From assembly GCA_001938485.1 (NCBI GenBank), contig MQRK01212312.1, positions 1 through 64,000 of the forward strand: DNA of 64,000 nucleotides, given 5' to 3'. Origin of the DNA: Girardia tigrina (Eukaryota). The stretch's first letter is position 1; each line of letters opens with the position of its first letter. Shown here piece after piece: positions 9,936 to 56,045 of this stretch. Both the position numbers and the translations under genes were made by a program. The notes beneath the pieces were generated by a model that worked only from the letters and a program-made list of their open reading frames with translations, did not search any database and was not told the DNA's origin.

Positions 9936-11200
9936 TTGGGTTGACCAAAAAGTCATTGCGTTTTTTACTAAAATATTTATTATCAAAAAATGACATGGAT
10001 GCACAAATATTTTTACACGATATATATATCCATTATTTTCAATCACTTTCTTCCACCTTTCCGGTAGCTTCATTATTCCTGATTCATAAAAACCTTTGCC
10101 TTTGTCAGCAAAAAAGATGTCTAGGAACGATTTGATGTCATCATCACTGGCGAATGTTTTTTCTGTTTAAGGAATTCTGCAGTGATCTAAATAAGTGAAA
10201 ATCCGATGGGGTCAAGTCTGGAGAATACGGTGGGTGCGGCAAAACCTCCCAACCCAGTGATAATAGTTTCTGGTGAGTGGTCAAACTTGTATGCGGTCTT
10301 GCGTTATCATGCTGAATTACAACTCCTTTTCGATTTGCCCATTCAGGACGTTCCTGTTGAATTGAATGAGCCAATTTCTCCAGCTAACCACAATATCTGT
10401 CTGAATTGATGGTTTCATTCCTCGGAACGAATTCAAAAAGCACAATTCCTTTAAAATCCCATCAGACGAAAAACATAACCTTTTTTGGTGAATTACTGCT
10501 TTTGGGATCGTTTTGGCAAGCTCACCACGTTTTGTCCATGATCGTCGGTGTTCCACATTGTTGTTAACAATCCACTTTTCGTCACCCGTAATGAAGCGCT
10601 TCAAAAATGGATCACTTTGTTCTCAATTCAAAAGGGAATCGCAAATGTCTATACGTTTCACCAAATGAAATTCTTTCAGTTCATGTGGTAAACACATATC
10701 GAGTTTACTGGCAAATCCAAGTTTCTTTAAATGACTTCCAACACTTGATTTTGATATTTCCAGAGTCTCTGCAACTTCTCTTGTCGTCATATGTGGATTA
10801 GATTTGATCAGTGCTGTTATTTTGTCGCTATCAACTTCAACTGGTCGACCGGAGCGTGGTGCATGTTTCAGATGAAATTTTTCAGAACGAAATTTAGAAA
10901 ACCAGTATTGACACTGTCGAAGTTTTAAGTAGTCACTACCATATACAAAACATATTTTCTTATGAGCTTGCACAGCGGTTTTCCCTTTGCGAAAATAATG
11001 CAACAAAACATGACGAATATGCTCATTTTGATTTTCCATTTCGAATTGACGGTAAAGTAATAAATTAAAACAAAATCAATTAATATTTTGTATAAACAGT
11101 CTGAAAATTGAGGTTTCAGAATATATAATTGAATTTAAATTTTACCACATCGTTTTATATTTTCAAGCTTTTTATTTTCAATGACTTTTTGGCCAACCAA
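9936..11200 (-). mobile_element. Full-length but pseudogenised mariner (DD34D) transposon
   Basis: TIRs TTGGGTTGACCAAAAAGTCATTG / CAATGACTTTTTGGCCAACCAA with TA on both sides, ~1.27 kb. The broken transposase (11039 down to ~10020) retains an HTH region, PRSGRP, (W>C)LPHEL, TGDEKW, HDNARPH and YSPDLTPSDFHLF. Confidence 0.95.
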
Positions 11201-15470: not shown

Positions 15471-18400
15471 TGTGAGGAATATTTTAAATTTTGTATGTTG
15501 AGTTTAGTATTTAGAAATGTGTTTCTCCCATCCAGATGGAAAATTGATATTTTAGATGTTCACGATAAATAATTATTCGAGTATAATTTATATTTTAAAG
15601 TACAGCATAAGATATTTAAAAACATTAAAAATATTAAATCGTTTCAAATTTTAATAATAAAAAATTAAATAAAGTAAATAGCTTTTAACAAAGTTTTTAC
15701 ATAAAATCATTTTTTGAATAGAATTAATATGTAGATAAAATTATTACTAAAATTATAAAATTTGAACTTTAAAAATAAAATCTAAAAATAATGAAAAATT
15801 TGTTCGAATAATTATTTATTAAAAAACATTAACTAAAAGTTATCAATTTAGAACGATGTCAAATTACGAAAGCTTTACTGAGAGTTTTCCAAAAAACAAA
15901 TCTAATTGCATTGAAAATAAAAGTTCGAAAACCCATGTTGGTGTTCTTAATATGGCGACACACGACCACGTGATTCCGAACATCAGAGGTCCGGAGATTT
16001 TTGATGGATCTGAAACAAAGGTTGAGGCATTCATAACGAGCTTTAATGAAGATAATGGGATTTTCAGAGGAGAGGAAAATCTTATTAGCAACACAATATA
16101 TGACTCCGGATGTCATAATAAAATATGAAGCAGCGACAGGTGAAACATGTGAAGAGAAACTAAGATCCGCATTTTCAAAGGAAAAATCTATCCTGGATCT
16201 AATGAATGAACTGGTAGAAATGAGAATTGGATCCAGCGATCCAACAGTAATATTTAGAAAGGCTGACGAAATCATTGAAATGTTAATTGAGAAAAAGTTG
16301 GGTAAAAAGGAACTATCAAATTTGGTCTACGCTAATCTGATAGATGACGAGAACGTACAGAAAGAAATAGCTGTTAGAGGTGTCAAGAAATCTGAAGAGA
16401 TTGAAGACATTCAAACGAGAATGTTCGAATATGATAAAAAGAAAAAAATGCTCCTGTAGCGGCATATAACACGAAAAGAGAAAATGAATGGAGAACAGTG
16501 GAAAATAAAACAAGTACACCAAGACCACAGAACGAGAAATTCATAGAACAAGAAACAAGAAGAAATTTTAAAGTTCGAAAAATTACCTGTTGAGCATGCC
16601 ACGAAGAAGGGCATATTAGAAGAGAGTGTCCAAACGTGAAGTGTAGTCATTGTAATGGAAAAGGGCATTTAAGAACACAGTGTTATGAAAACCCTAATAG
16701 GTTTAGGGAGCGTGATCAATGGAAAAGGGATAATGGAAATAATCGATGGAATAACAGGCAAAATTACTCGAATCAACGGTATAGAGAACGGCCAACATAC
16801 ACGAATAGGAAATACCCAGTAGCAGAAGTGGACGAACTAGATGATGAATTATACATAAGAGAAGAATCTAGAAAAGGGGACTATTCTGAAGGAACGTATA
16901 GAAGAGAAGATGGTAAAAGACTGGAATCTCCCGTAGGTAACAGAAAATTCAGAAATGATCAGGGAAACGAGGACGCACGATCACAGGGAGAAGTGATCAC
17001 TGTGCTACAATAGGAACTCAATGTAGGTGTATGATTGATTGTATGTATGAATGTGTTTGTGATTGTATGTTTGATGATGTGTTTGAAAATATTCCTCTGG
17101 AGATGTGCAGATTAGATAATGAACCTGAAGGACACGATGAAATATGTGCTAATATGGATATAGAAAATGAGAAAAAAATTAAAAAGAATGCTGAAGATGT
17201 ATTGATATTACCGAAGTTTAACATAAATTATGAAGATTTGAAAGATAGACCAAGTATAGAGTTCCGAATAAAGAATAAAAATGTCAATTGCCTGTTAGAT
17301 ACCGGAGCTCGAGTCAACGTTATTAAAGCAGAGATAATTAAAGATATGAAAGATGTCAAGATCAAAGAAATTAAAAGATGAATACATTGTGCGAATGATT
17401 CAGAACTTATAAACTATGGTATTTATAAAAGTAACCCAAAGTTCAGATAAGGTTAACCTGAAGCTACTTTTATATGATATAATAAACGAAATAACAAATC
17501 CGGGAGTGGAAATGATGTTAATTACAAAGAAGAAAAACTATAACGAATAACACATACAATTCAATAACCGTATAACAATTCTTTTGTCTTTTAACTTGAA
17601 AGATGATGTCGGACTTGATGGTTATTCGTCGTTTTTTGAGATTGTCAGGATTGTCTTCTTGGTAGCGTTATTGCATGAGACGAATCTTTAAAAAAACGAT
17701 AAAGGACTTCAATTCTTCGAGAATTTCTTTGTCGAGTTCTTGGGACGTGAGTAACGATTTGTCATCGGTGGTGAGATGGAGAGAGAGTTGTTTGGTGTTG
17801 TTGGAGAGATGATTGAGGATGTTGATACAGTTGCAGTCGATGAGTTTTTGGTTTCAGCTTGGGAATGATTTAATAATAGAATCCACAAAAACTACTGTAT
17901 TTCATTAATTGATCAATATTTCATATTTATTATTTAATTTTTTATTTCTCAATCCAAATATTATTATTTAGCTTGAATTCCATAATAATGTACTTTTACA
18001 GTATTGTTCAACTTAAAGTGATAATTGAAAGAATGCAGAAAACAGTAGATTTCTTTGTGGTCAAAGATTAAGATCCAGAAATGATTGCATGAATGGATTT
18101 CTTGGACAAATTCAGGATTAAGTTAAAGAGAGAACCATCAAATACTAATGAGTTACTGGTAATACGAGACAATCCATCAGACGAGGATAGATTGAGGAGA
18201 ATAAAAGAGCTGTTAGAAAACAAAATTGACAACCAACTAATGGAACTTTTAACACGATTTAAATCAATATTTATGGCCGACAAATGGGATATTGGAAGGA
18301 CATCACTGACCAAACACAAGATCGAAACGCATGGAGAACCGGTTTTAGTGAAACCTTATCGACAACCAAAACATTTCGAGGAAAAACTGAACGATATTAT

Positions 18401-18697
18401 TCGAAATTATGAAGAAAACGATATTATAGAGAAATGCAGTTCACCGTGGAATTTCTCTTTAGTTTGTGTTTGGTTTTTTTGTATGTTGAGTTTAGTATTT
18501 GGAAATGTGTTTCTCCCACCCAGATGGAAAATTGATATTTTAGATGTTCACAATAAATAATTATGCGAGTATAATTTACATTTTAAAGTACAGCATAAGA
18601 TATGTAAAAACATTAAAAATATTAAATCGTTTCAAATTTTAATATTAAAAATTTAAATAAAGTAAATAACTTTTAACTAAGTTTGAATTAAATAAAT
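15471..18697 (+). mobile_element. Internally deleted Gypsy LTR retrotransposon (5' LTR, PBS, gag, protease, start of RT, partial 3' LTR)
   Basis: 5' LTR 15471-15952 followed by PBS-like TGGCGAC. Gag zinc knuckle CSHCNGKGHLRTQC, protease LLDTGA and RT start SSPWN follow. The sequence then jumps at ~18478 into a second copy of the LTR. Confidence 0.9.
17424..18000 (-). mobile_element. Solo LTR of a second family inserted in the Gypsy protease region
   Basis: 5-bp TSD GTATT (17419-17423 / 18001-18005). Minus-strand termini are TGTAAAAGTA...TACTTTTATA. Removing the insert restores the reading ..INYG-IVQLKV.. Confidence 0.8.
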
Positions 18698-22855: not shown

Positions 22856-23269
22856 TTACATAATGTTCGAATAATTTAGTAATAAATCTGAGTAAGAAAC
22901 AGCTTGGCTATTCTGAAAATTTGATATTCCTGATGGTACCCAGTTGTAAGGGTTTGCGTTGGTCGCGTTCAACCAGTGGGTGGGATCATACGTATTTTTA
23001 TAGAAGGGACATTGATAAATTCCCTGATGAGGGGTCGGGGACGATTCATGCAACGATGCTGGATTACTGGTTGTGGAATTCGTACTGGGTTTATTTTTGT
23101 TCGTTCTGTCACTAATAAAACCTATGGAAATATTTTTCTCGCTTTTCGAAGAAGGATTTGGCGGATTTGATAATTCGTTTTTTTTCGACGAATTTTGGTA
23201 GTGATGAACATCGGAACCGGGATTTTGTTTCTTCCACTTCGTTCGTCTATTTTGAAACCAAATCTTTAC
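22856..23269 (-). CDS. Nkx1: NK1/Nkx1 (slouch/Sax-type) homeobox gene, exon 3 (helix 3 and C-terminus)
   Basis: Acceptor aaatag| then VKIWFQNRRTKWKKQNPGSDV... open for 138 codons to TAA at 22858-22856. KWKKQNPG is the NK1-family signature. Confidence 0.95.
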   Translation of the reverse strand, partial: VKIWFQNRRTKWKKQNPGSDVHHYQNSSKKNELSNPPNPSSKSEKNISIGFISDRTNKNKPSTNSTTSNPASLHESSPTPHQGIYQCPFYKNTYDPTHWLNATNANPYNWVPSGISNFQNSQAVSYSDLLLNYSNIM

Positions 23270-41488: not shown

Positions 41489-43270
41489 AGAGGAATCGCG
41501 ACGAAACTGTGTACACTGATTGCAGAAGTCTCACTTATAATCGCTGACGATCAAACTAAATGCTGATAGGTCGCGTTTAATAATTATTTATATTCACTTC
41601 GCAACGATTATTACAAATGGGTAAATAGTATTAATAATAATAGTAATATCTTCCTTCTCATTATCTCTTTTTATCTCTTTAATAGAGAGAATGACAAGCT
41701 CGTTCTTAGGAAGCAGGTGATGTTGAAGCTGATTCAGACTATTTCTTAGTTGTTCTATTGTTCTAATTGAAAATAGCCTGATTTCATATCAACGTGAGAA
41801 TCTCTTAAGTACGCTGACATGCCAGCATCGAGCTAACAGGCATCACAGACACACAGCCGCATTTATCCCCGCGACCCCCCCTCCCCGGCCACACACTCGC
41901 TCCTGCAGACAGTCTTCTGCAAATGTTGTGTATAATTGCTGCTTATTAATTCGCTGGAGGGCGGCAATAAAACCAAATTAATTTGTGAATTCGATCTGCT
42001 AGAGTTCCTTCGCCTCATCTAATATTTGATATAGGAGGCTTAATGAGATATAAGCATTTTTGCTCGTTTGTTGTAAATCTTTGTCCCAATAAATTTATAT
42101 ATTGGAGCTGGAAAAAAAAATTTTTAACCACTAAACAATTAACCGCATTGAAATATTAAACACGTTTCAGGACTCTGCCATTTATTAAATTGAGTAGGCT
42201 AATTATTTGAGATTATGTGGAGATAAATTAATTTTACCACGCAACTAAACTGCTGTAAGCGAGCGCAGCTGACTTCTCGATGTGATTCCTGTCGTCAACA
42301 ATCGCTAATGATTCCATAGTCTTACTGACTGCAAATATGAGAAAATCATTTATCTAGAATTACATTATAGGGAGAATGCACGATGCATTCGCTATCAGAA
42401 TTAATGTGGCTGAGAATAATTGAGGAATGATAATGGGTTTTAAATTACTAGAAATATACGATTGTCGATGCTCCGGTTGCATGCTCCATCATGTGAGTGT
42501 TAAACCTGTCGTCATTCTTCGCTAATGGGTCCGCTTTGTTCAGATATGTTCCTAGCTAATTGCTACAGTCTGTGGATGCTCAATAATTTTCAGTAACCAA
42601 TTCAATCCAATTACATAAAATAATCACTTTATTTTACCGATTATCAAAGGGAAAAAATAATGTATCTAAATGTTTGTCCATTATGGTTTTTTTAATATTA
42701 ATAGTGTTATTTAATTAGTATTCAAAACCGCTTTATCCAATGCTGTTTATTGAATCAATGAATATCTCGTGAAATGTTTCCCCGTCTTCTTTTTGTTCCG
42801 TCCTCGCAAGGATGCGATTCCTCATTATTCTGTCGGTACTCCCAATTTCGGGATCTATCGCCACTCGCCAGATTCATTCAACCAGAAGAGAATGAGTATT
42901 AATTATCCGCGTTGCGGAATTGAGTCACTTTTGGGGAATGTTTTCGATAAGTCATTAAATTTGAATATAAATACGATTAAAATACTCTCACGATACAGAA
43001 GGAAAAATATTTTTTTCGTCTAAAATCAGAAATTATATTTTAAAAATATAATGTTAAATGAATATAAATTATTATCTCTATGAAATCTGATCTTTGGGAT
43101 CAGTTTCTGACGAGCAGGTTCAACTGGACGTCTTATAATCTTATCCTGGCCATTGGGAGTACAAAAGAAACGAGCAACCTTTTTAAAAAATATTATTCAA
43201 TAAAATGAAACGCTTTAATACATTTTTTAGGAATAATAATAAATAAAAAATGCATAGAATTTTTCAGTCA

Positions 43271-44347
43271 TTAAGGGGAAAATGAGCATTCTGCCTACAA
43301 CCCCCCTGAGGGTAACCCGTTGCCATGGCAACATTTGCGGTTACCATAGCAACCGTCACGATCACCCTAGTAACGGTTACGGCTCACTTGGTAACGGTAA
43401 CCAAGGTCTTAGTTACCATAGCAACGGTAACCAAGGGGTGTTTTTCATTAGCAACGGATACAGTGATTCAAGGTTGTTGTAAAAATGGTAACAGTTACCG
43501 AATCCATATCAACAGTGACCCTTTCCTTAGCAACCGTAGAAAAAAGTGCTAATCGATCGCTGCATAGTGCATAGATGTTTTAACCGATACTTTAAAAGTG
43601 CTAATCGATAGTGCACATTGTGCCGCACATTTTTAATTACACATGTGCAAAAGTGCAAAAATCAATACATATAATTTTTAAAAACTAGTGTCAAAAATCG
43701 ATATCATGTGTTTGATGCTCATATGTTTGATTCTCTAACTAAATGTGCAATTAGAATTTTCATATATTGATTACTTTTGCCTATAATTAACATAATGTAC
43801 AAATTTACACAAAATGCACATCGATTTTAGGCCTAGGCAGAGGTACAAGAAAGCTGAATATCAAAAATGTGCTCATACACTTTAATAGTAATTCATATAC
43901 GTACATTCAGATTCCACATCTACATTTTCGAAAAGGTGCTGAAATATCCATTTTTTCGAACATTTCTGAAATTCTCAAAAAAGTGCTTAAAATCGGTGCA
44001 TAGTGCTTTTTTCGTATATACCTGAAACCCATATGTAATATGTATGTTGCTTGTCATCAAACAATACCTCATGAATCGTTTAATGTAGCCCAGCCTAGAC
44101 ATCAACAATCACAAGTACCATGGTTACCGTAACCAAGATACATAATTTTTTATATTATATGTAAAATCTACATTTATAAAACTCCTATCCTACTTAAAAC
44201 GTGCATAGACATGTAAAACGTGCCTAACATGTACATGATCTGCTAAAGTAGATGAGCCTAGACATCAAATATCATATCACCTTGGTTACCGTAACCATGT
44301 TACTATCTTCATGCATTTGTTATGCATCCATCATGTCAACGAGTTGC
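43271..44347 (+). repeat. Left TIR (~1.08 kb)
   Basis: Reverse complement of 50412-51340, e.g. GGGGAAAATG(A/G)GCATT and CACCTTGGTTACCGTAACCATGTTACTATCTTCATGCATTTG. Confidence 0.92.
43319..43425. promoter_or_regulatory. Array of RFX X-box-like palindromes in left TIR
   Basis: GTTGCCATGGCAAC (43319), GTTACCATAGCAAC (43340 and 43412), and degenerate units at 43361 and 43382. Confidence 0.6.
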
Positions 44348-44545
44348 ATTCATTATGTTAACGAAATTTGAATTTAAAATTTGAATTTTAATCAATATTT
44401 TAAATTTCTAATGAGACACCTGTCATTATTTCAAAATCCTGTTAAGAAAATGGTGAGTTTTTTTTTCAGTTCCGTTAAAAAATATTTTTTTTAAAATTCA
44501 AATTTATCCCAATACTACAAATACAATTTCTCTTCACAAGAGGCA

Positions 44546-47500
44546 ATGTACAAAACTAGTTTTGAAGAATTTTACAATGACTATAAACAACATGTAGTTC
44601 CTTCCACCAAATCGAAAAAGCATATATTCAAAGAAAATGTCGAAGATGTTTCAAGAGAAAATTCCTATGAAAATTCAACAATGTTCATTATACAGATGCT
44701 GCATGGCAAATGTTCACAATCCACAAATTTATCATGATACAATGCAGTGTTACTATGGATATGTGTTCAATAGATGTGAGTATTACATTTATCCAGTATG
44801 TCAAAATGCAAGTAGTGGTGACTATCATCAATTTTATGATAGCCACAAGAACCATTTGTGGGACTTTTCAATAAAGTCCAGGAAGACTATCTTCCAATTA
44901 TCAACGTACCAAGTTCTCGCATCACTAAATTTTTCGAATGTTCCAATTGAGAAGAATGTGTTAAATGTCCAAATTGAGAAGAATCTAACAAATACGATAA
45001 AAGTTCCCTTAAAACGTGTAAATGCTACAAATGTTCCAATGGAGATACATGTTTCAAATGCTGCCAAGGCTGCAAATATTCCATCAAAACGTGCAAATGA
45101 TACAAATATCATAAATGTTCCATAAAAAAGTTCAAGACAGGACCAATTCATAAAGCTTCATTGAATAAGAAGGTACGTTAATATGTTATCAAGGCTCCCC
45201 AGGCTAACCTAGACAGCAAGGTTTCAAGTCTCCACGAGTTTCTGGAATATTCCAAGAAGGAAACCATGGAGATTCTACAAGACAACATGTTTGATTTCAA
45301 GGCTATCAAAGTCAACCTTAAATTGGAGGCAACATTCACCAATGTTGATGATGATGTGTCAAATAGAGCCTTCAAGACCAAAAATAGACCAATGTTAGAA
45401 TCCGATGATATTTTGGAGTGGCTCAATGAAGAATATGCCAAGATAATGAAGGAAGCTGATGAGAGCAAAGAAAAGAAGAGTGGATGGACTCTTGCATACG
45501 TTAACCAATTGATAATTCATGTTCATAAATACTCCACAATGAGAGGCAGGTCCTACATACCGCTTCCTGAATGGATAGCTAATAAAAAGGCATGCGTCAA
45601 TGTTTACAATAATGACAGCATGTGCTTCAAGTATGCTTTGCTGTCAAAATTTGTTGAGGATCAGAACCATGCATCACTAGTATGGATATACAACAATCTG
45701 CAGCATCCATATAACTTCAACTGCATAAAATTCTCACCGAACCTGGAAGAAGTCACTAAATTTTGAAGCCACAACAATGTTTCAATCAATAACTTTGGTT
45801 TGGAAAATGAAACATTTTATCCCTTACTTGTATGTAAGGAAAAAATAGGAGATCATCTGGATTTGCTATTGCCAGATGATGGAGAAAAGAGGCATTTTAT
45901 ATGGATCAAAAACTTTGAGCGCCTTCTAAGATCCCAAATATCGAAACATCATGGAAGTATCGAGATTTGTAAACGATTCTTTACACATTTTAATGGAGAT
46001 GATGCGGCAATTAAGTTGGAAGAGCACAATGCTTATTACAATAACAATCATTGCATCAGAGTGGAATTATCAAAGGAAGATTATATCGAATTCAAAGAAT
46101 ATGAAAAGATGCAGAAAGTGCCCATTATCATATATTGTGACTTTGAAGCCATTCTAAGCCCAGTTAAAACATGCAATCCGGATCCATAACTTAGCAGTAC
46201 GACATCATACCAGTATCATGAGCTATCATCATATTGTATGTATGCATTTGGTATTGACAGTGAGGCATTCCTATACAGAGGGCCAGATACAGCAGAATAT
46301 TTTATGAAACGTATGGATAGTTATGCCCACAGAATTGAAGACATGTTGCAGCAACACAAGTTCAACATGATAATTACATGGCAAGAAAAGTGTGGATGGA
46401 GAAAGGCAACACAATGCTACTTGTGTGAAAAACCATTCACAAATGACAATCACAAAGTCAAAGACCATTGTCATTTTACTGGAAAATATCGAGGAGCAGC
46501 ATGTAATAACTGCAATTTGCGATATAAAACATCTACAAATGTTCCTGTTGTATTCCACAATCTTAGTGGATATAACTCCCATTTCATAATAAGAGAACTG
46601 GAAAAATCAGTGGGTATATATACGTTATTCTAAATAGTAAGGAAAAATACATCACATTTACCAAGCATGTGGGTAGAATTAAGCTACGATTCATCGATAG
46701 TTTCCGATTCATATCATCATCGCTGGACAGCCTTGTCAAGAATATTCCTGCAGCTGAACTGAAGGAAACTAAAAAGTTCTTCCCAAATTCATTTGACTTA
46801 GTCAAAAGGAAAGGAGTATTTCCTTATAACTATATAAGATCATGGAGATCGCTGGATGAAACAATATTGCCAGCAAAAGAGGCATTTTACAACAAGCTTA
46901 ATGACACCGACATTAGTGATACTGATGCACAAAATATCTGGCAAGCTTTCAAATGCCAAACACTTGGGAGATATAGTGATGTATACCTCCAAACAGATGT
47001 GCTGCTTCTTACGGATGTTTTTGAGAGCTTTCGGGATGTGACACTTAAGAGCCACAAGTTGGATCCAACTCATTTCTTTACATCACCAAGTATGAGTTGG
47101 GCAGCAATGCTGAAATATACAGGCATAAGGATTCAAATCCTGAAAGATTATGACATGATCCTCATGCTGGAACGGTATGGTGAGGCAAACAATAATACAT
47201 GAAAAATTATGATCCATCCAAGGCATCCTCCTACATAACATTCTTGGATGCTAATAATTTATATGGATGGGCAATGAGTGCTCCATTACCATGACAATTT
47301 CAAATGGGTGGATCAACCTGAAGACATCACGATAGAAAAACTGAACCCTAATGGAGATGTGGGCTACATATTGGATGTGGTAGTTGAATATCCAAAATCC
47401 ATCCATACAAGACATGAGTAGCTGCCTTTTCTGCCTGAGAGCAAATGTGCTCCTAAAGGAAAACATAAGAAGCTGCTCTGTCACTTAGAAAATAAACAAA

Positions 47501-48434
47501 AATATGTAGCCCATTACATCAATGTCCAACAAGCTATAAGGAAATGTCTCATAATCACAAAGATCCATTGGGTTCTTCAGTTTAGTTATTAAAAATGGCT
47601 TAAGCCATATATTGACTTTAACACCAATCTGATGACCAATGCCAAAAACGACTTTGAAAAGGATCAGTTCAAACTGTACAATAACAGCGTTTTTGGCAAA
47701 ATGATGGAGAATATCCGCAACAGAATCAACATGGAACTGGTGTGTGATTTGAAGCGAGCAAAGAAGCTCATTGCCAAATCAAACTTCCACAGTAGTATTA
47801 TATACACTGAAAATCTTGTGAGTATACATATGCTGAAGACATCCCTGGAGTTTGATAAGCCGATATGTGTGGGGATGTCAATCCTTGATCTATCCAAGGC
47901 CTTGATGTACGACTTCCACTATGACATCATGGTCCTTAAATTCCGGGATTTACAGCTAATGTATATGGATACTGATAGCTTTGTCTATCAGATTCATACA
48001 GAAGATCTGTTTGCGGAGTTTTTCAAATGGTTCAACATATGGATATCTCAGACTATTCAAAGGACCATCCAAATTATTAAACATCAAATAAAAAGGTCCT
48101 TGGAAAGTTTAAGGATGAAGTCAATTGTCAAATCATCTCTAGATTCCTGGCACTACGGTCTAAGATGTATGTCATTGATGTGAATGGAAAGATCAAAAAG
48201 ATGGCAAAGGTAGTTCAACGGGCAATGTTAGCAAACCAAATCGGATTCCATAATTATATGAGAGTGCTGCGGGAACAAATCAATATAATTTCTGAAATGC
48301 GAAGGATCCAATCAAGAGGACATCAAGTCTCCACAGTAATGATGCGGAAGAAAATCCTAGACTGGTTCGACGATAAACGACATATTTTGACAGATGGAAT
48401 AAGTATATTACCTCACGGATATTATTTCTTGTGA
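44546..48434 (+). pseudogene. Protein-primed family B DNA polymerase (Polinton/adintovirus type), fragmented by stops and frameshifts
   Basis: ExoI IYCDFEA; EndoVII-like CYLC..DHCHFTGKYRGAACNNCN; ExoII FHNLSGYNSH; FIDSFRF; RKGVFPY; ExoIII YLQTDVLLL; motif A LDANNLYGWAM; motif B KLYNNSVFGK; motif C YMDTDS; GKFKDE. The 44546-45125 part may be its N-terminus or a separate ORF. Confidence 0.93.
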
Positions 48435-48769
48435 ATGATCCACTTGTATATATTGTACATATGTAAATAAATAAATGTTCTTTATAATCTTGTTACGTTT
48501 TAATTCAATTAAAGGTTAATCAAATAATCGTTTCAGAAAGTAATATGTAAAATATTTATTAACGTGATGATAATAATTCAAGTTAATCTATACTATACCA
48601 AAATGCAACAATTCTCCATTCATTTCTAAATTCAGCTTTACTATCTCTAATTCATGTTTTATTTGTGTTTCTATATCCATTTTAACAAATGTATTAATCT
48701 ATTTTATATAAAATCAAGACTAAATTATTACAAGATTTATTAACACAACAATACAACTTGCATCAACAA

Positions 48770-49498
48770 TTAAATACAACGAATTTCTGACAATTTCCAT
48801 ATTTGATTATTTTCTCCATTTCTTTCTTTTCTACCTTGTATGCATATTTTGATAAATGCCATAGTATAATTAGACAAGTCCATTGTTGGTTTTTCATGAC
48901 CCATAAAATCTCTGAATTTTAACCCATCATCTGATCGAAAATATTGTTCTCGATGTTCACTCAGCTTTCCATCTGGTCTTGTTCCAACTTCTTGTAGGTA
49001 AATATTCAAAAGATCATAAATGCGATCACTAATGTCCTTTACATGGTAGCTAAATTTGCTCTTTCTAACATATACCGGATCCCTCAATTTAATTGATTTC
49101 GGATATTTCAACAAGTTAATTTGATATCATCTATATGCTGTTGAAGTAGAAACCCATGGTGAGGAAGATTTTTGTGGAGCATATCTTTGTTTTGGTTGAA
49201 AATAACTAACTTGTTTAGTCTGATTAACCAGGGCTTCAACAATTGGCACTTGAATATCCTTGGCTGTTTGAGTGTCTAGGCTAGCCCGGCTAGCCAGGGC
49301 TACTATTGGTTGTCCAACTAGCCTAAGCAGCCTGATTAGTCTAGGCCGCCCTACTGGTCTGACTGGTTCGACTAGATTAGGTTGATCAGCATTTATCTCT
49401 TCAGTTAATTGGTTAGGTCTATTAATTGTCTCATCATCAATCTTCTTTTCTTCAGTTACCTGGTTAAGTTCATTAAAGGTTTTAAACTTCAACTTCAT
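48770..49498 (-). pseudogene. Unknown ~240-aa ORF with AT-hook-like motif (one internal stop)
   Basis: ORFs 49127..49498 and 48770..49114 are in the same frame, separated by a single TGA. Contains RPVGRPR. No fold recognised. Confidence 0.55.
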
Positions 49499-49760
49499 TT
49501 TAGCAGGAGCAACTTGATTTGTCTAACGGATTTTGAAATAATGACAAAATGTCTTGATGTTGCGATATCTTATAATGTTTATTATATTTATTTTATTTGA
49601 TACATTAAAACAAAACATATCATAATAATATTATTTATATATTACTTTTAATATAATAAAACAAACACTTGTTATTAATTTGTTTTAATGAATCACTATT
49701 AATAAATAGACACAAGGCGGGAATTCGAATTATGATGGATACAGTGACATTCATTTTTAA

Positions 49761-50381
49761 CAAATACTGCGTAATATTAATTATAAAGGATTTACTCAAG
49801 ATTGTCTGAAAGACCTCCATTTTGGTACTAACCCGTACCAATGTGTTTTATACTTGCTAGAGTATACCATTATACTCTTCCGAAACGGAAAATGTCGAAT
49901 AACGGGCTGTAAACTACCAATTGATCCATCCACTTTACCATTCAATCTCACCAATGTCAGTATACAATTTATTACAGTGACTCGTGATTATGGTGATCCC
50001 ATAAATATCAATGCTTTGAAAATGACTACTCCGAATCATTATGAACCTGAAACGTTTCCTTCTATGAGATTAACTTGTTTGAATCCAATATGTATAAATG
50101 TTTCTCGTTCTGGGAAAATTGTAATCACCGGTTTGAGAGATTTAAACTATAAGGATTTTGTTACACGTGTTTTGACTATATTTTGTTTACAATGTTTATT
50201 ACGTAAGTTGTGTTTCAAATATATTGTTGTATCTTCTTCATTCAAAATCTTGTGTATATTAAACATTGTACATATATGTTACAGCTGTACATGCTATTTA
50301 AATAAATGTTTTGTTGAAAATAGTCATGTTATACATGTATTCATTCAAAACCTTGTAAACAACAACTTTTATTATAAATAA
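49761..50381 (+). pseudogene. Divergent TATA-box-binding protein (TBP)-like ORF
   Basis: Two TBP-repeat signatures: TIILFRNGKCRITG, and HYEPETFPSMRL...INVSRSGKIVITG (cf. LIFxSGKxVxTG and YEPELFP). The frame is open from 49761; the likely ATG at 49732/49735 needs a frameshift. Similarity ends near 50180. Confidence 0.82.
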
Positions 50382-50411
50382 TAATGATATATACTATAAA
50401 ATGGTTACTAA

Positions 50412-51340
50412 GCAATATGTTGACATGATGGATGCATAGCAAATGCATGAAGATAGTAACATGGTTACGGTAACCAAGGTGTTTTGATAGTTGATGTCTA
50501 GGCTCATCTACTTTAGCAGATCATATACATGTTAGGTATAATGTCTATGCACGTTTTAAGTACAATAGGAGTTTGATAAATGTAGATTTTACATATAATA
50601 TAAAAAATTATGTATCTTGGTTACGGTAACCGTCGTACTTGTGATTGATGTGAAATCTGAATATACGTATATGGGTTACTATTAAAGTGTATGAGCACAT
50701 TTTTGATATTTTTCTTTTTTGTACCTCTGCTTAGGCCTAAAATCGATGTACATTTTGTGTAAATTTGCACATTATGTTAATTATAGGCAAAAGTAATCAA
50801 TATATGCAAATTCTAATTACACATTTAGTAGAGAATCAAAATATGCATCAAACACATAATATTGATTTTTGACACTAGTACTTTTAAAAAATGATATGTA
50901 TTAATTTTTGCACTTTTGCACATGTGCAACTTAAAAAGCAATATGCTAGCACCTTAAAGATGTGCGACACAACGTGCACTATCGATTAGCACTTTTAAAG
51001 TGTCGATTAGAGCATCTATGCACTGTGCAGCAGTCGATTAGCACTTTTTTCTACGGTTGCTAAGGAAAGGGTCACTGTTTTTATGGATATGGTAACCGTT
51101 ACCATTTTTACAACAGCTTTGAATCACTGTAACCGTTGCAAATGAAAAACGTCCATTCGTTACCGTTGCTATGGTAACTAAGACTTTGATTACTGTTACC
51201 AAGTGTGCCGTAACCGTTACTAGGGTTTTCGCGACCGTTGCTAAGGTGATCTGAACCGTTACCATGGTAATCGGAACAGTTGCCATGGCAGCGGGCTACC
51301 CCTGGGGCGGTTGTGGACACAATGCCCATTTTCCCCATAC
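50412..51340 (-). repeat. Right TIR (~0.93 kb)
   Basis: Inverted copy of the left TIR. It lacks ~43921-44103 and has one extra 21-bp unit plus a ~22-bp insertion. Confidence 0.92.
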
Positions 51341-51948
51341 TTCAGTCAATTAATGTTTAATCGAAACTTTGATCTTACACAATTTACAAATGTTTTCATA
51401 GGAAAATTTGTTTGAAACAATTTTATTTAACATTATTTTGTCTTATGATAAAAAGCGAATAAAAATAAACACTATGTTCCCTCTGTGTACCGAAACACAA
51501 TGCACTGCATGAAGCCTCGTCTGATCCAAACAGTCGTAGAGCTCGTCCCGTCTGTTGTATGAAGTCATTGTACTGTAGTGTTCGGATCGAAGGCCTCAAC
51601 TCATTGGGGATTGTTAGGACTGAGTCAGCGAATTTAACCAACAAGGATCATTTTCGAATGGTATATGCGGTCGATTGCGAGGAAACCACTAGAATCTCTT
51701 TGTCATTCGTTAGGGCAGCAACGGTTTGAGCCGTTCGTTACAACTTGTCATGATTTTTCTTCAAATTCTCGTACATATTTACAATAATCCTTATTTCAAC
51801 AGATAAACACATCAGCATTAGAAATAATAAGAAAAAAGATGAACACTCTGACGTATTTTTCGTTTTTCAAAAACGTGTTTTTGTACATGCGTTCAAAGAA
51901 CTACATTTTATATTGTTATTTTTTATTTTTTTCTTTGTTTTGCATGTA

Positions 51949-54900
51949 CAGTGCGTTCAAAAAGTCTGTTCGCACCCATAAAAATCATCACTTATACAAA
52001 TGTCCTAAGTAAAAAGACGATGAAGTGGAAGTAAATATTATATTTACAAATAAAAATGTTATTTTTAATATTTTGTGTGGTATCCTTTCATCTTGATGAT
52101 TGAAGACACTCTTCGCGGCATCGAATCGACAAGTCGGCGATATAAAGAACTTAATATGTTGTACCATAACTTTTGTATTTCTATCCACATTTTTTCTGAA
52201 TTCAAAGTATCCATATTATTTATTTTTCTCTTTATAATACCCAACAAATTCTCAATTGGATTTACATCTGGTGAGTTGGCAGGCCAATCAAGAATATTTA
52301 TCTTCTTTGTTTTCAAAAAAGACACTGTTGATGCTGATCAATGGCAAGGCGCATTGTCTTGCTGAAATATAAAATTTAGAAGAGGGAATACCAAGCATTG
52401 CCCTGTAATGTCTATGTTATTGACAATTAGGTCTTGATAGTTCTTCGAATTTAAATTCCCGTTTATCCGTTTTAAGATACCAACACCAAATCTGGAGAAA
52501 GATCTCCATACATGAACTTGGGCACCGTGTTGGAGGACCTTCTTAGTACAAATGTCACTAAGCCTTTCATTGTCAAACCTTTTAACGATTTCGCTACGAG
52601 TGTGGCTATACGTGCGGAACATAGATTCATCGCTAAAAACTACATTCGACCACTTATCAATGTCCCAATTTTGTTTATCCCGAGTCCATTCAACTCTTCT
52701 TTTTCGTTGCTTTCCATTCAATAAAGGCTTGCAAACAGCATAATGACTTTTTTAAGCCGTACTTTATCAAAATTCTATTCACTATACTTCGTGATACATT
52801 TTTTTTCAGTGAGCAAAAGTGCCCGGTTTTTACAAAAATAAATTCGCCGCATACATCAACCCAAAGGAATCATCAGCACCGGCCCTGGATTCCACAGGGG
52901 TTCTTTCGCTAATGGCCTCCTCCCGCACCCTTCAATTGGGTGATCGTTTCCGCCGGACCCGACACTTCGCTTATTGCACTAGTAACTCATCATTGGAGGT
53001 GGGTTCCTCCTCCCATGATGAGTTATTTACATCTTCTGATGAATCTCCAATCCTAGATCTAAAAAGTCTTGGGAGTAATTCATCATCGGATGAGTCATCT
53101 TGAGTTTGATCCTCAATCAGAAAAGTTCCCCCATGTTGCACTCTTTCTCTATGACTGAAAGATTGTATGAGTGCATCCAGGGCGGCTGGATCAAAGTCTT
53201 CGACGTCCTCAGGGACAATATGTGCGTAATCGGCTTCTTCCATCATTAACATGCTGTCTTGAGGTCCGTCGTAGCATTCCACATTTATTTTGCTGACTCT
53301 TTGTATCCCGCTTGGGACTATTCCATCCCATTGATAAGACCATTGTGCGGCTGAATACTTGATGTTGGATATTGAGCATCCAATCGCAATTTTTCTTATC
53401 ACCTTCTGCGGGATCTTCAGCGTTGTTAAGATATCCGTGCTCCTCTTTGGCCACGTCCCAAGGCATCCTACTTGGAGAGTAAACACTGTCACTGTTGTTT
53501 CGGGCATTGCCGCCTTACAAGCATTGGCAAGAATCTCATAATGGTCGAGATTCTTTTCATTGCTGTGTTTGATGTTTTTCACTGTGTCAAATGGGCACTT
53601 AACATCAATTAGGTATAGGATCTTTGATCGTGGGACGAATACCTGTAAGTCGACTCGGTCCTGTGATGGGGCATATTGGCACTCAGTATTTATATCTACC
53701 TTGCAATCCAAATACTGAGTGATTTGCTCTCCAATACACTACAGGACCGAGTTATGCCTATAGTTTCTGAAATCCCCACTATAATTACAGTCGGTCAGCA
53801 CGTGAGCCAATGTTTCTTTATCGTGAGGGCATCGGCGACAATGACCTCCATTCTTGGTGATTCCTGGTCGGAAGTTGACTGGCACCGTGTATGTAAATGC
53901 TTTGTGGTAAAAATACCACTCAGCATAGTTGAGCTCCCCCCCATAGGCAGCGCTGTGAAAGCTAATCGTCGATTGCAGGCTTCTTGAAAATCGACCAGCA
54001 CTGTTTTGGACATTCCATTTGTGCGTCCAAGATTTTTTCACTAGTCTTCTTAGTGTCTTGGACACACTGGATTTTAGGAGGGGGGTGAGGAGTATGTTTT
54101 CATGCGTGTCGTCCCGGAAAGTTTCATATTCACCATTGGGTAGTCTCCTCTTCCACACCAGTGATTGGTGAAGGTGTAGACAAATGCCTCTCTCATTCTG
54201 CACCAGACTAGCTGAGATCTGGTGCAGTTCTTTGATTTTGTGGATGGCAAATTTGATCTNNNNNNNNNNNNNNNNNNNNNNNNNNNNNNNNNNNNNNNNN
54301 NNNNNNNNNNNNNNNNNNNNNNNNNNNNNNNNNNNNNNNNNNNNNNNNNNNNNNNTCGCTCCACGTTGAAGGGAGAAGACTGCAGCATCCATCGTTGTCG
54401 CATCACTACACGCAATCATTTGGAAACTATGGGCCAGTGATTGTATCAGGTACTCATCAAGTAGCGATTTGATACCGACTCCCCCATTTTCCCTTGGCGT
54501 GTAGAGATACGCATTCGATGCGTTTTTCTGCAGTCCCAACACTTTGTGGTAAAAATACCACTCAGCATAGTTGAGCTCCCCTCCATAGGCAGCGCTGTGA
54601 AAGCTAATCGTCGATTGCAGGCTTCTTGAAAATCGACCAGCACTGTTTTGGACATTCCATTTGTGCGTCCAAGATTTTTTCACTAGTCTTCTTAGTCTTC
54701 ATCCAGTGTTCCATATGGAATGTAGAAGATCCTGAATGAGAAAACAAGTTTGGAATGTAGATAGACCATGTAAGCGTGCAATTTCTGCCAGGGAAACAGT
54801 ATAGATTCTGTAATCTTAATTGTTTCNNNNNNNNNNNNNNNNNNNNNNNNTACTGGTGCTAACTTAATATTTTCTGAAAAGTGACCTCCCAAATATACAA

Positions 54901-56045
54901 CGAATTCACCCTCCGTAATTTCGGGGATAGCGTTTCCATAGATTTGGATCCTATTGTTTGGATTATGTGGGATAGCTATTCGTGAACATTTGGAAGGTCT
55001 GAATTTAATACCTAAAATGTTGGTAATGTCGACCGCCTTATTGACCATTTTTTGCATATGATCCTGATTATCAGCCAGCAACACAAGGTCATCAGCATAG
55101 GCCAAGCAGCTCACACGGTGATTGGCTATCAACATACCGCCATAAGACTGTTGGTCCAATTCCAATAGGACAGGGTTTATAGCAATGTTGAATAGCAGCA
55201 TTGATAGTGGGCATCCTTGAGTGACTCCCACCAAAATCGGAATTTGTTTGGTCACCGTGTTGTCGCATTTGTATGCCGATGAGCAGTCCCTGTATAGCTG
55301 TCGTATCAGGTCACACGAGTCTGCTCCTACACCCATTCTTCCTAGCAATTTAAGGATGATTTCCACCGACACTGAGCCAAATGCGTCAGCATTGTCTAGC
55401 ATTGTCGCGTGGAATTCGGCTCCTTTTAATTGATAGTAATATTTATCTAGGATGACCCGGATGACAAAGTTGTGTTCAGCACAGCCATCATGAGGACCTA
55501 GACTTTTCTGGAGTGGGTGTAAGAGGTCATTTTCCACAATCCACTTGTTTAGTTGGTCTCTTAAAAGTATAGCCAGCTGCATTGAAAGCTCCTGTTATTT
55601 TATTTATCGACATGCGCCTATTTTTCAAGCATATACGGCGAATAATTCTTTCAGAATGTTTTGGTAATTTTGAAGGTCGTCCACTACGTTTTTTATCTTC
55701 ATATGTACCTAATGTCTTGAACTTATGTACATTTTTTTGAATGCCACGCTTTGAAACAATAATACCATGTCTAACCTTCATAATTTCTTGTATCCGACCC
55801 GTTGAATGACCCTCGTTCATTAATTCTACAATAATAATCCTAACCCTTATATGTATATTTCGAGTTGTCATTGAATCTAAAAGATAAACATTTAATTAAT
55901 TCATCTTAAAATAAGATGTTCTTGATATTTCAATTTTAAATTTACTAAAATTATTTAAATTAAAGCATTTAAACAAATTAAAAAAATTAATAAATAGCAT
56001 AAATCAAAATTTCAATGGGTGCGAACAGACTTTTGAAACGCACTG
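51949..56045 (-). mobile_element. Tc1 (DD34E-type) transposon interrupted by a non-LTR retrotransposon
   Basis: 31-bp TIRs CAGTGCGTT..AAAGTCTGTTCGCACCCAT with TA TSD. The transposase N-terminus (55871-55581, RSGRPSKL) resumes at ~52819 with VFSDES, FQQDNAPCH and WPANSPDVNPIENL. Confidence 0.95.
52823..55580 (-). mobile_element. 5'-truncated non-LTR retrotransposon with restriction-like endonuclease (R2 group, NeSL/R4-like)
   Basis: RT motifs LDNADAFGSV, GVTQGCPLS, LAYADDLV, YLG and PRENGGVGI; zinc knuckle CRRC..ETLAHVLTDC; RHNSV; RLE motif RVDL...LIDVKCP. Confidence 0.92.

Follow-up and report, generated by a model that had tools for sequence, protein, structure and literature searches.

We analyzed a 64,000-nucleotide stretch of the Girardia tigrina genome (contig MQRK01212312.1; here called the window) that contains an element of approximately 8.07 kb bounded by terminal inverted repeats (TIRs) at positions 43270 to 51341. 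The element has genes for a protein-primed DNA polymerase B (pPolB), a predicted single-stranded DNA-binding protein (SSB; encoded by the open reading frame [ORF] ORF2), and a TATA-binding protein (TBP)-like protein. Other units in the genome have the same ends and carry integrase, ATPase and virion genes. Our best explanation is that the two are halves of a split Polinton, i.e., a replication segment (segment 1, which includes the window unit) and an integration/virion segment (segment 2), that share TIRs and probably complement one another in trans. To us, the main interest of the window unit lies in its partner and less in how compact it is.

Integration/virion units with the same ends

The assembly searched comprises 1.43 Gb in 255,254 contigs; C numbers denote its contigs, and L numbers denote fetched loci. 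A first search returned 7,893 candidates for the TIR, 1,330 for TBP, and 4,910 for pPolB, which are not copy numbers. Searching with the capsid, ATPase, and protease proteins of a TBP-type group of Polintons (see below) returned 706, 926, and 1,157 candidates. One complete segment 2 (C223974:9435-18479) is 9,045 bp long with a single 50-N gap and has both TIRs and a six-base target-site duplication (TSD) matching at 5 of 6 positions. Between its TIRs lie, in order, an acidic ORF, a small ORF, the ATPase, another small ORF, the integrase, penton, pX, capsid, and protease genes, and a further gene. Both TIRs, without a pPolB, are also present in C243296, C171887 (1,454 N inside), and C222231 (internally deleted). 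Pfam identified the integrase as rve plus chromo and the ATPase as A32-like. The capsid protein was not recognized by Pfam or PDB sequence searches and matched only in profile comparison, to a PF21738-positive major capsid protein (MCP) (probability, 95.6; E value, 1e-8). The penton, pX, and protease genes were identified by tblastn to two metagenome loci, L095 and L097, together with their position.

The window's TIR was found at the ATPase end of all 10 contigs fetched around capsid, ATPase, or protease matches, and none of these 10 contigs had a pPolB, SSB, or TBP gene. The TIR was likewise at the ATPase end in 8 of the 12 best ATPase loci (3 overlap the 10 contigs, 3 are uninformative, and 1 belongs to the sister family M described below). 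At the capsid end, it followed the last gene in 6 of 12 MCP loci; the other 6 stop short. The complete segments measure 8.07 and 8.32 kb (segment 1) and 9.05 kb (segment 2), giving a sum of ~17 kb. The initial annotation had proposed that longer copies with the same TIRs and with integrase, ATPase, protease, and MCP genes would make the window unit an ordinary deletion derivative of a Polinton. Such units do exist, but they lack pPolB, ORF2, and TBP, a result that neither branch of that test had anticipated. We conclude that they are the complementary half of the window unit and not its longer parents.

One pool of ends and two gene sets

We compared 28 + 15 TIR arms of segments 1 and 2. Identities were 86.9% within segment 1, 87.0% between segments, and 87.1% within segment 2. 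In a weakly supported tree, the arms of the two segments were intermixed (10 label changes versus 12.7 when shuffled). The TIRs of the two segments are therefore indistinguishable and form one pool of ends. The gene sets were separate. No locus had genes of both segments in a comparison of 44 segment 1 loci with 42 segment 2 loci (each of ≤10 kb, some being neighbors or duplicates), and no contig was common to the first match lists (0 between 203 and 245, among the matches listed). Later lists share one contig, on which the segment 1 and segment 2 genes are 73 kb apart. These absence tests cover ~150 of the 700 to 1,300 candidates per list in a fragmented assembly. The two units thus have what is expected of a segmented genome: common terminal sequences and complementary, nonoverlapping essential genes. 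A single-piece form with the same ends was not seen among the loci compared, which for one related family (family M, below) cover the part from the TIR to the ATPase.

Boundaries of the window unit

The TIR arms of the window unit are 90.9% identical over 882 aligned columns, with ~186 bp missing from the right arm, and the left arm contains ~21-bp GGTAAC/GTTACC repeats. The left terminus is decayed in this copy, but most other copies have AGTA there. AGTA precedes 14 of 18 displayed TIR ends (the search pattern started inside the TIR and excluded the terminus; two pairs of rows are duplicates). Since the family ends in AGTA, the boundaries of the window unit move out by one base on each side and the duplication is 6 bp, TCAGTC. 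The unit of 8,070 bp with ~1-kb TIRs in the initial annotation is therefore real and does have long TIRs, but its true span is one base wider on each side; the 8-bp direct repeat reported with it counts one terminal base from each arm and has to be replaced. A 6-bp duplication was present in all four units with both ends readable (6/6, 5/6, 6/6, and 5/6 matches), whereas alternative lengths of 7 to 9 bp gave at most 3 matches in those units. This count leaves out C171887, C243296, C237774, L035, and L044, in which the two ends are not both readable. A transposase of the hAT, P, or MULE type acting in trans had been considered for an 8-bp TSD and was dropped once the true ends gave 6 bp.

Polintons have AG...CT termini. 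The AGTA ends of the family agree with this pattern, the window copy having a decayed left end, and so the view that the ends and TSD are unlike those of Polintons no longer holds. Published ranges are 100 to 1500 bp for the TIR and 5 to 8 bp for the TSD (10.1101/2023.08.22.554363); the TSD is typically 6 bp. The window unit has a pPolB, long TIRs, and a TSD within the 5- to 8-bp range; it lacks an integrase, the ATPase, protease, and major and minor capsid genes, and a length of 13 to 25 kb. Judged by its ends, TSD, and gene kinship, the unit is best classed as a Polinton derivative.

Genes of the window unit

The plus-strand pPolB gene matches Pfam families EndoVII (PF02945; E value, 9e-8) and DNA_pol_B_2 (PF03175; E value, 4e-7). 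Its start lies at ~44450, as a Cys/His-rich N-terminal part upstream of the earlier call is in frame in other copies. The nearest named relatives are arthropod adintovirus/Polinton PolBs (~46 to 58% identity), the nearest being that of a Ladona dragonfly adintovirus (54%). The copy is dead, as had been stated: pPolB has five in-frame stops and frame changes, and ORF2 has one stop.

The minus-strand ORF of ~240 codons convergent with pPolB, ORF2, is present as described. It had been called an AT-hook ORF, and there is one RPVGRPR motif in its low-complexity N terminus, but the conserved part is a C-terminal OB-fold (about positions 48773 to 49147) with insertions of the gp2.5 type. A model of this domain (pLDDT, 87.8; 9-row alignment) gave its best fold matches to T7 gp2.5 (Z score, 8.9; root mean square deviation, 2.9; 110 residues aligned) and to DUF2815 and the Enc34 SSB (Z scores, 8.8 and 8.6), followed by African swine fever virus CP312R (7.2); the next row scored 5.3. 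The Z scores are modest, and the top four rows, gp2.5 and three look-alikes, stand above a gap. We read ORF2 as a predicted SSB similar to T7 gp2.5. Identification of ORF2 as an MBD or galactose-binding domain was rejected, as Pfam gave no match; Atlas matches (<0.9) were toward F5/8-type folds, which the model did not bear out.

The plus-strand TBP-like ORF was also correctly called. The protein modeled was P0001, a naturally occurring homologue with 80% identity to the window frame. It is predicted to form a two-lobed saddle (pLDDT, 95.7), and its top Foldseek matches were all TBPs (E value, 1e-9), with cellular TBPs best. The homologue is matched by 781 proteins at an E value of ≤0.001, and ~100 compact relatives are 40 to 50% identical (E value, ≤1e-10). 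In an ORF and Pfam scan and in comparison with such genes, we found no integrase, ATPase, protease, or capsid gene inside the unit, in agreement with the initial annotation.

Segment 1 copies evolve under selection

Segment 1 copies are ~85 to 92% identical. Besides many partial copies, there is a second complete one of 8,317 bp (C248235:39843-48159), from which an integrase is absent; a compact, multicopy, integrase-less unit is thus borne out. Five loci (L031, L032, L037, L057, and L058) have the layout of the window, with pPolB convergent with ORF2, while L036, L045, and C248235:39843-48159 have the pPolB module inverted. The pPolB tree, which has poor resolution, does not separate the two layouts.

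We compared codon positions between copies, after dropping duplicate loci and family M. The ratio of second-position to four-fold-site divergence was 0.41 to 0.42 for pPolB, 0.32 for ORF2/SSB, and 0.50 for TBP, and the control, TIR sequence read as codons, gave 1.33. The dN/dS values of segment 1 genes were 0.28 to 0.48. We conclude that the pPolB, SSB, and TBP genes are under purifying selection between integrase-less copies, and hence that selection was acting on the genes as these lineages without an integrase diverged. The proposal that the unit brings its own pPolB as replicase and is integrated in trans appears right, if activity can be read across from known pPolB systems.

Several variants of the family were seen. 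In L057 (C166036; 4806-5375) and L064 (C237556; 1-627), a second, diverged SSB-like gene is driven by a copy of the pPolB promoter region in inverted orientation. The 3′ end of pPolB runs directly into the TIR in L053, L055/L056, and L068, and C181799 also has a TIR upstream of pPolB, which suggests pPolB-only units. Family members are nested or back to back at L013 (1407-3335), L031 (269 and 833), L068 (3092 and 3445), and L020. Two inverted TBP genes lie ~2 kb apart on one contig in both C231591 and C252840; these could be palindromic mini-elements or assembly artifacts. Among sequence runs, one labeled as RNA covers TIRs and genes alike, with DNA carry-over possible. A raw-read run gave 20 partial reads of the element. 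Three runs consist of contigs and so carry no information on ends, strand, or level, and no site at which many molecules start or stop was listed. The small fractions seen in metagenomes of aquatic, sediment, and litter origin were not used as evidence.

Single-piece relatives carry both gene sets

A metagenome scan with a TBP alignment identified 43 loci. In the four loci longer than 12 kb (L095, L097, L126, and L131), pPolB, ATPase, integrase, and virion genes are found beside TBP; in the shorter ones, TBP adjoins the ATPase or protease region. An ORF2 homologue lies beside TBP in six loci. TBP and SSB are therefore ordinary genes of one Polinton group. Full-length Polintons have both as accessory genes, and the proposal that the family of the window unit is distinct from Polintons does not hold. 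A search of a viral contig collection gave no relative of TBP or of the segment 2 ATPase.

The four long loci resemble the pair of segments in having the same TBP, an SSB-like gene, and the same gene order in the virion module. Their genes are similar to those of segment 2 (ATPase, ~70%; integrase, ~50%; capsid, 47%; the protease is also common to both), and the segment 2 ATPase falls among the ATPases of these single-piece Polintons. They differ in having all genes on one contig and in their pPolB, which belongs to another clade and is 32 to 37% identical to that of segment 1. L095 also carries a ubiquitin-conjugating enzyme as cargo (PF00179; 225-722), and in L109 (1897-3327) and L112 (2297-3109), Cys-rich, apparently secreted or membrane proteins are encoded downstream of TBP.

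How the two segments may work together

An ancestral TBP-carrying Polinton would have given rise to two TIR-bounded units sharing one pool of ends, with segment 1 (8.1 to 8.3 kb) keeping pPolB, SSB, and the TBP-like factor and segment 2 (9.0 kb) keeping the ATPase, integrase, penton, pX, MCP, and protease. By analogy with known pPolB systems, pPolB, helped by the SSB, could use protein priming to copy whatever linear DNA ends in these TIRs. The integrase of the TIR-sharing partner would insert either unit, presumably as one and the same enzyme, and leave the 6-bp duplication seen on both. Packaging of both units could fall to the virion genes of the partner. More speculatively, the TBP-like protein might help the host polymerase to read element promoters by way of a promoter-like stretch repeated before pPolB and SSB. 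The window copy is a dead insertion.

Alternative explanations

Several observations count against a simple split. In a sister family, M, the ATPase is immediately preceded by a diverged SSB. This arrangement recurs at 40 or more sites, most of them close to the start of a contig, and on six contigs TBP lies beside it. The M order is TIR, acidic ORF, TBP, diverged SSB, and ATPase, and an M-type metagenome contig (L090) carries the same TIR at 83 to 96% identity. Family M may be an intact helper. The last segment 2 gene runs into the TIR in 24 of 40 cases, with a TIR nearby in 3 and no assignment for 13, and the ranking favors TIR-bearing matches. Four-fold divergence between copies is larger in segment 1 genes (0.12 to 0.16) than in segment 2 genes (0.035 to 0.076), and selection on the segment 2 ATPase is barely visible (ratio, 0.82). 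The segment 1 pPolB does not group with those of L095 and L097 (35 to 37% identity), so polymerase exchange must also be assumed; such exchange between Polintons is documented (10.1101/2023.08.22.554363). Neither expression nor free linear DNA is evident in the sequence runs (three of contigs and one with 20 raw reads), and rare single-piece copies can be missed at the coverage and fragmentation given above.

Whether the two halves need each other depends on family M. With a pPolB, M would be a complete Polinton able to serve both segments, i.e., a helper with two complementary satellites; without one, it would be an older segment 2. In the former case, which we regard as a real possibility short of an even chance, segments 1 and 2 are semiautonomous deletion lineages that borrow from M. 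This is a subcase of trans-complementation in which the halves do not need each other and any borrowing between them is incidental. The gene order of M matches that of the single-piece relatives, M matches are often stop-free, and the window architecture, with SSB convergent with pPolB, is that expected from one internal deletion of an M-like element. However, M is a sister and not a parent of the segments: its TBP and ATPase have 77% and 86% DNA identity to theirs (85 to 87% for the ATPase against that of segment 2, with a synonymous divergence [dS] of ~0.46). Moreover, all 19 pPolB fragments in the tree fall in one star-like family with no outlier at the level of M, a weak argument as the fragments were selected for their similarity to the window, and the protease and pPolB lists have no contig in common (0 of 150 versus 39 among the matches listed; low power). 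The stricter form of the split, which we put forward tentatively, is that of an integrating double-jelly-roll (DJR) double-stranded DNA virus made up of two segments that share their ends and cannot do without each other. Integrated copies of each segment would number in the hundreds or more, and M would be an older segment 2 and not a complete helper.

The M contigs seen are C174213 (L147), C184596 (L145), C31138, C52247, C63653, C12065, C213113, and C237904, in addition to L090, and M accounts for 2 of the 12 best ATPase loci. A divergent pPolB in L062 was considered as the polymerase of M and rejected, since it falls inside the segment 1 family in the tree.

Trans-complementation between TIR-sharing halves also has to be weighed against two readings in which the window unit has no such partner. 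It could be an ordinary nonautonomous deletion derivative, passively amplified by canonical Polintons, with its own genes irrelevant. All inspected copies are indeed broken, and canonical PLA2-type Polintons with an integrase are abundant in the genome (1,335 capsid candidates). Purifying selection in pPolB, SSB, and TBP largely refutes this reading; in addition, the pPolBs of sampled PLA2-type Polintons are only 25 to 47% identical, and blastn of the element against 20 PLA2-type loci gave just two short TIR-end matches (L081 and L089). These Polintons were rejected as parents on the same identities and near-absent matches, and we consider a passive derivative improbable. Even less credible is a minimal replicon or transposon of independent origin that has an 8-bp TSD and no relationship to the structure modules of Polintons. 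It would suit the two architectures and the small gene set, which is stable across many copies, but the TSD is 6 bp with AGTA ends, full Polintons contain TBP and SSB genes, and precisely the genes that are missing are found on a unit with the same TIRs; the shared TIR pool refutes it.

The PLA2-type loci (L070 to L089; e.g., C234723, C220222, and C253197) are unrelated, abundant canonical Polintons with a PLA2-like ORF, pX, an rve integrase, an ATPase, and a PF21738 capsid; many of their capsid frames are stop-free.

Features of the window

The features of the unit are listed in Table 1. The noncoding stretch 3′ of ORF2 could be either a relic of common ancestry or a shared regulatory element.

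TABLE 1 Features of the segment 1 unit in the window
Feature	Position	Strand	Basis or remark
Left TSD	43264..43269		TCAGTC; 6/6 match to 51342-51347
Left TIR, 1,078 bp	43270..44347	+	Inverted-arm alignment; same TIR pool as segment 2
pPolB	44450..48434	+	Pfam PF02945 and PF03175; frames across copies
Noncoding stretch 3′ of ORF2	48656..48769	-	114 bp; recurs upstream of segment 2 ATPase (73-81% identity)
ORF2	48770..49498	-	~240 codons, convergent with pPolB; interrupted here by one in-frame stop
Promoter-like stretch upstream of ORF2	49528..49632	-	Also found before pPolB in copies with the inverted layout; putative function
TBP-like protein	49764..50200	+	PF00352 (E value, 1.6e-10); ~145 aa, two-lobed, first repeat shortened
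Right TIR, 930 bp	50412..51341	-	Inverted-arm alignment; ends ...ATACT
Right TSD	51342..51347		TCAGTC; match to 43264-43269

Elsewhere in the window, an exon of a host homeobox gene encodes a homeodomain C terminus (22856-23269, minus strand; KIWFQNRRTKWKK). There are fragments of a Ty3/gypsy-like long terminal repeat retrotransposon (181-651 and 16037-18560; gag zinc knuckle, protease, and RNase H), of a Mariner transposase (10623-11075, minus strand; Mos1-type helix-turn-helix), and of a Tc1-like transposase (52065-52751, minus strand; DDE_3). A non-LTR retrotransposon (52971-55594, minus strand) encodes a reverse transcriptase with a restriction-like endonuclease motif at the C terminus, and 155 bp of it are duplicated on either side of an N gap; we take it to be of the R2/NeSL-like family.

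Comparison with known systems

No bipartite or segmented Polinton, and no Polinton with a TBP or SSB, is described in the literature searched (Repbase, Dfam, subscription journals, and bioRxiv element tables lay outside the search). The portions available of PMC8502044 and its preprint (10.1101/697771), PMC11071296, PMC11161782, PMC6431247, PMC12567637, and PMC12220804 do not describe a split Polinton, and a TBP in such elements is mentioned, in the portion of PMC8502044 available, only in a figure legend. It is possible that either unit is already catalogued as a nonautonomous Polinton. Standard Polinton screens accept only core genes that lie together in one 20-kb block (methods of 10.1101/2023.08.22.554363) and would therefore overlook split forms.

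Because the split is natural and follows function, it offers a test, at the genome level, of whether the TIRs allow pPolB and integrase to act in trans. Polintons have been proposed to have given rise to capsid-less linear plasmids and to segmented bidnaviruses, and the split form would be an intermediate on that route. It would also, if true, be a rare segmented double-stranded DNA virus genome. Two Polinton accessory genes would gain functions by their modeled folds, as a compact TBP and a gp2.5-like SSB, and the latter would fill a gap in the strand-displacement model.

Linear pPolB plasmids of fungi and plants, such as the paired yeast killer plasmids, are like segment 1 alone in having TIRs and accessory SSB or transcription genes and no capsid. 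Unlike segment 1, they reside in the cytoplasm or in mitochondria and do not integrate with 6-bp TSDs. A pPolB of Polinton origin and segments with related terminal repeats are also found in Bidnaviridae and Drosophila Vesanto virus, but these are single-stranded DNA viruses with a parvovirus-type capsid and a helicase and no integrase and are not Polintons (PMC4061559 and PMC8363768); no parvovirus-type capsid or S3H/NS1 family was found among the ORFs scanned here. The Tlr elements of Tetrahymena resemble segment 2, in which we saw no replicase, in having integrase, ATPase, and capsid genes without a pPolB; they differ in having their own superfamily 1 helicase, and the available part of PMC4028283 describes no TIR-sharing pPolB partner.

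The system works in the manner of Polintons/Mavericks (adintoviruses, Eupolintoviridae). The pair of segments shares with them a pPolB with EndoVII, an rve-plus-chromo integrase, an ATPase, penton, pX, a DJR capsid, and a protease, and both units share their long TIRs and 6-bp TSD. Polintons/Mavericks, for which a pPolB and an integrase on one molecule are the defining feature, are described as single molecules of 13 to 25 kb, whereas here these two hallmark genes are on separate units of 8 kb and 9 kb that have the same ends. The window unit alone falls outside Polintons for its lack of an integrase, virion genes, and length; the pair falls within them. The two units may be a two-segment version of a virus group that has been described as single-piece.

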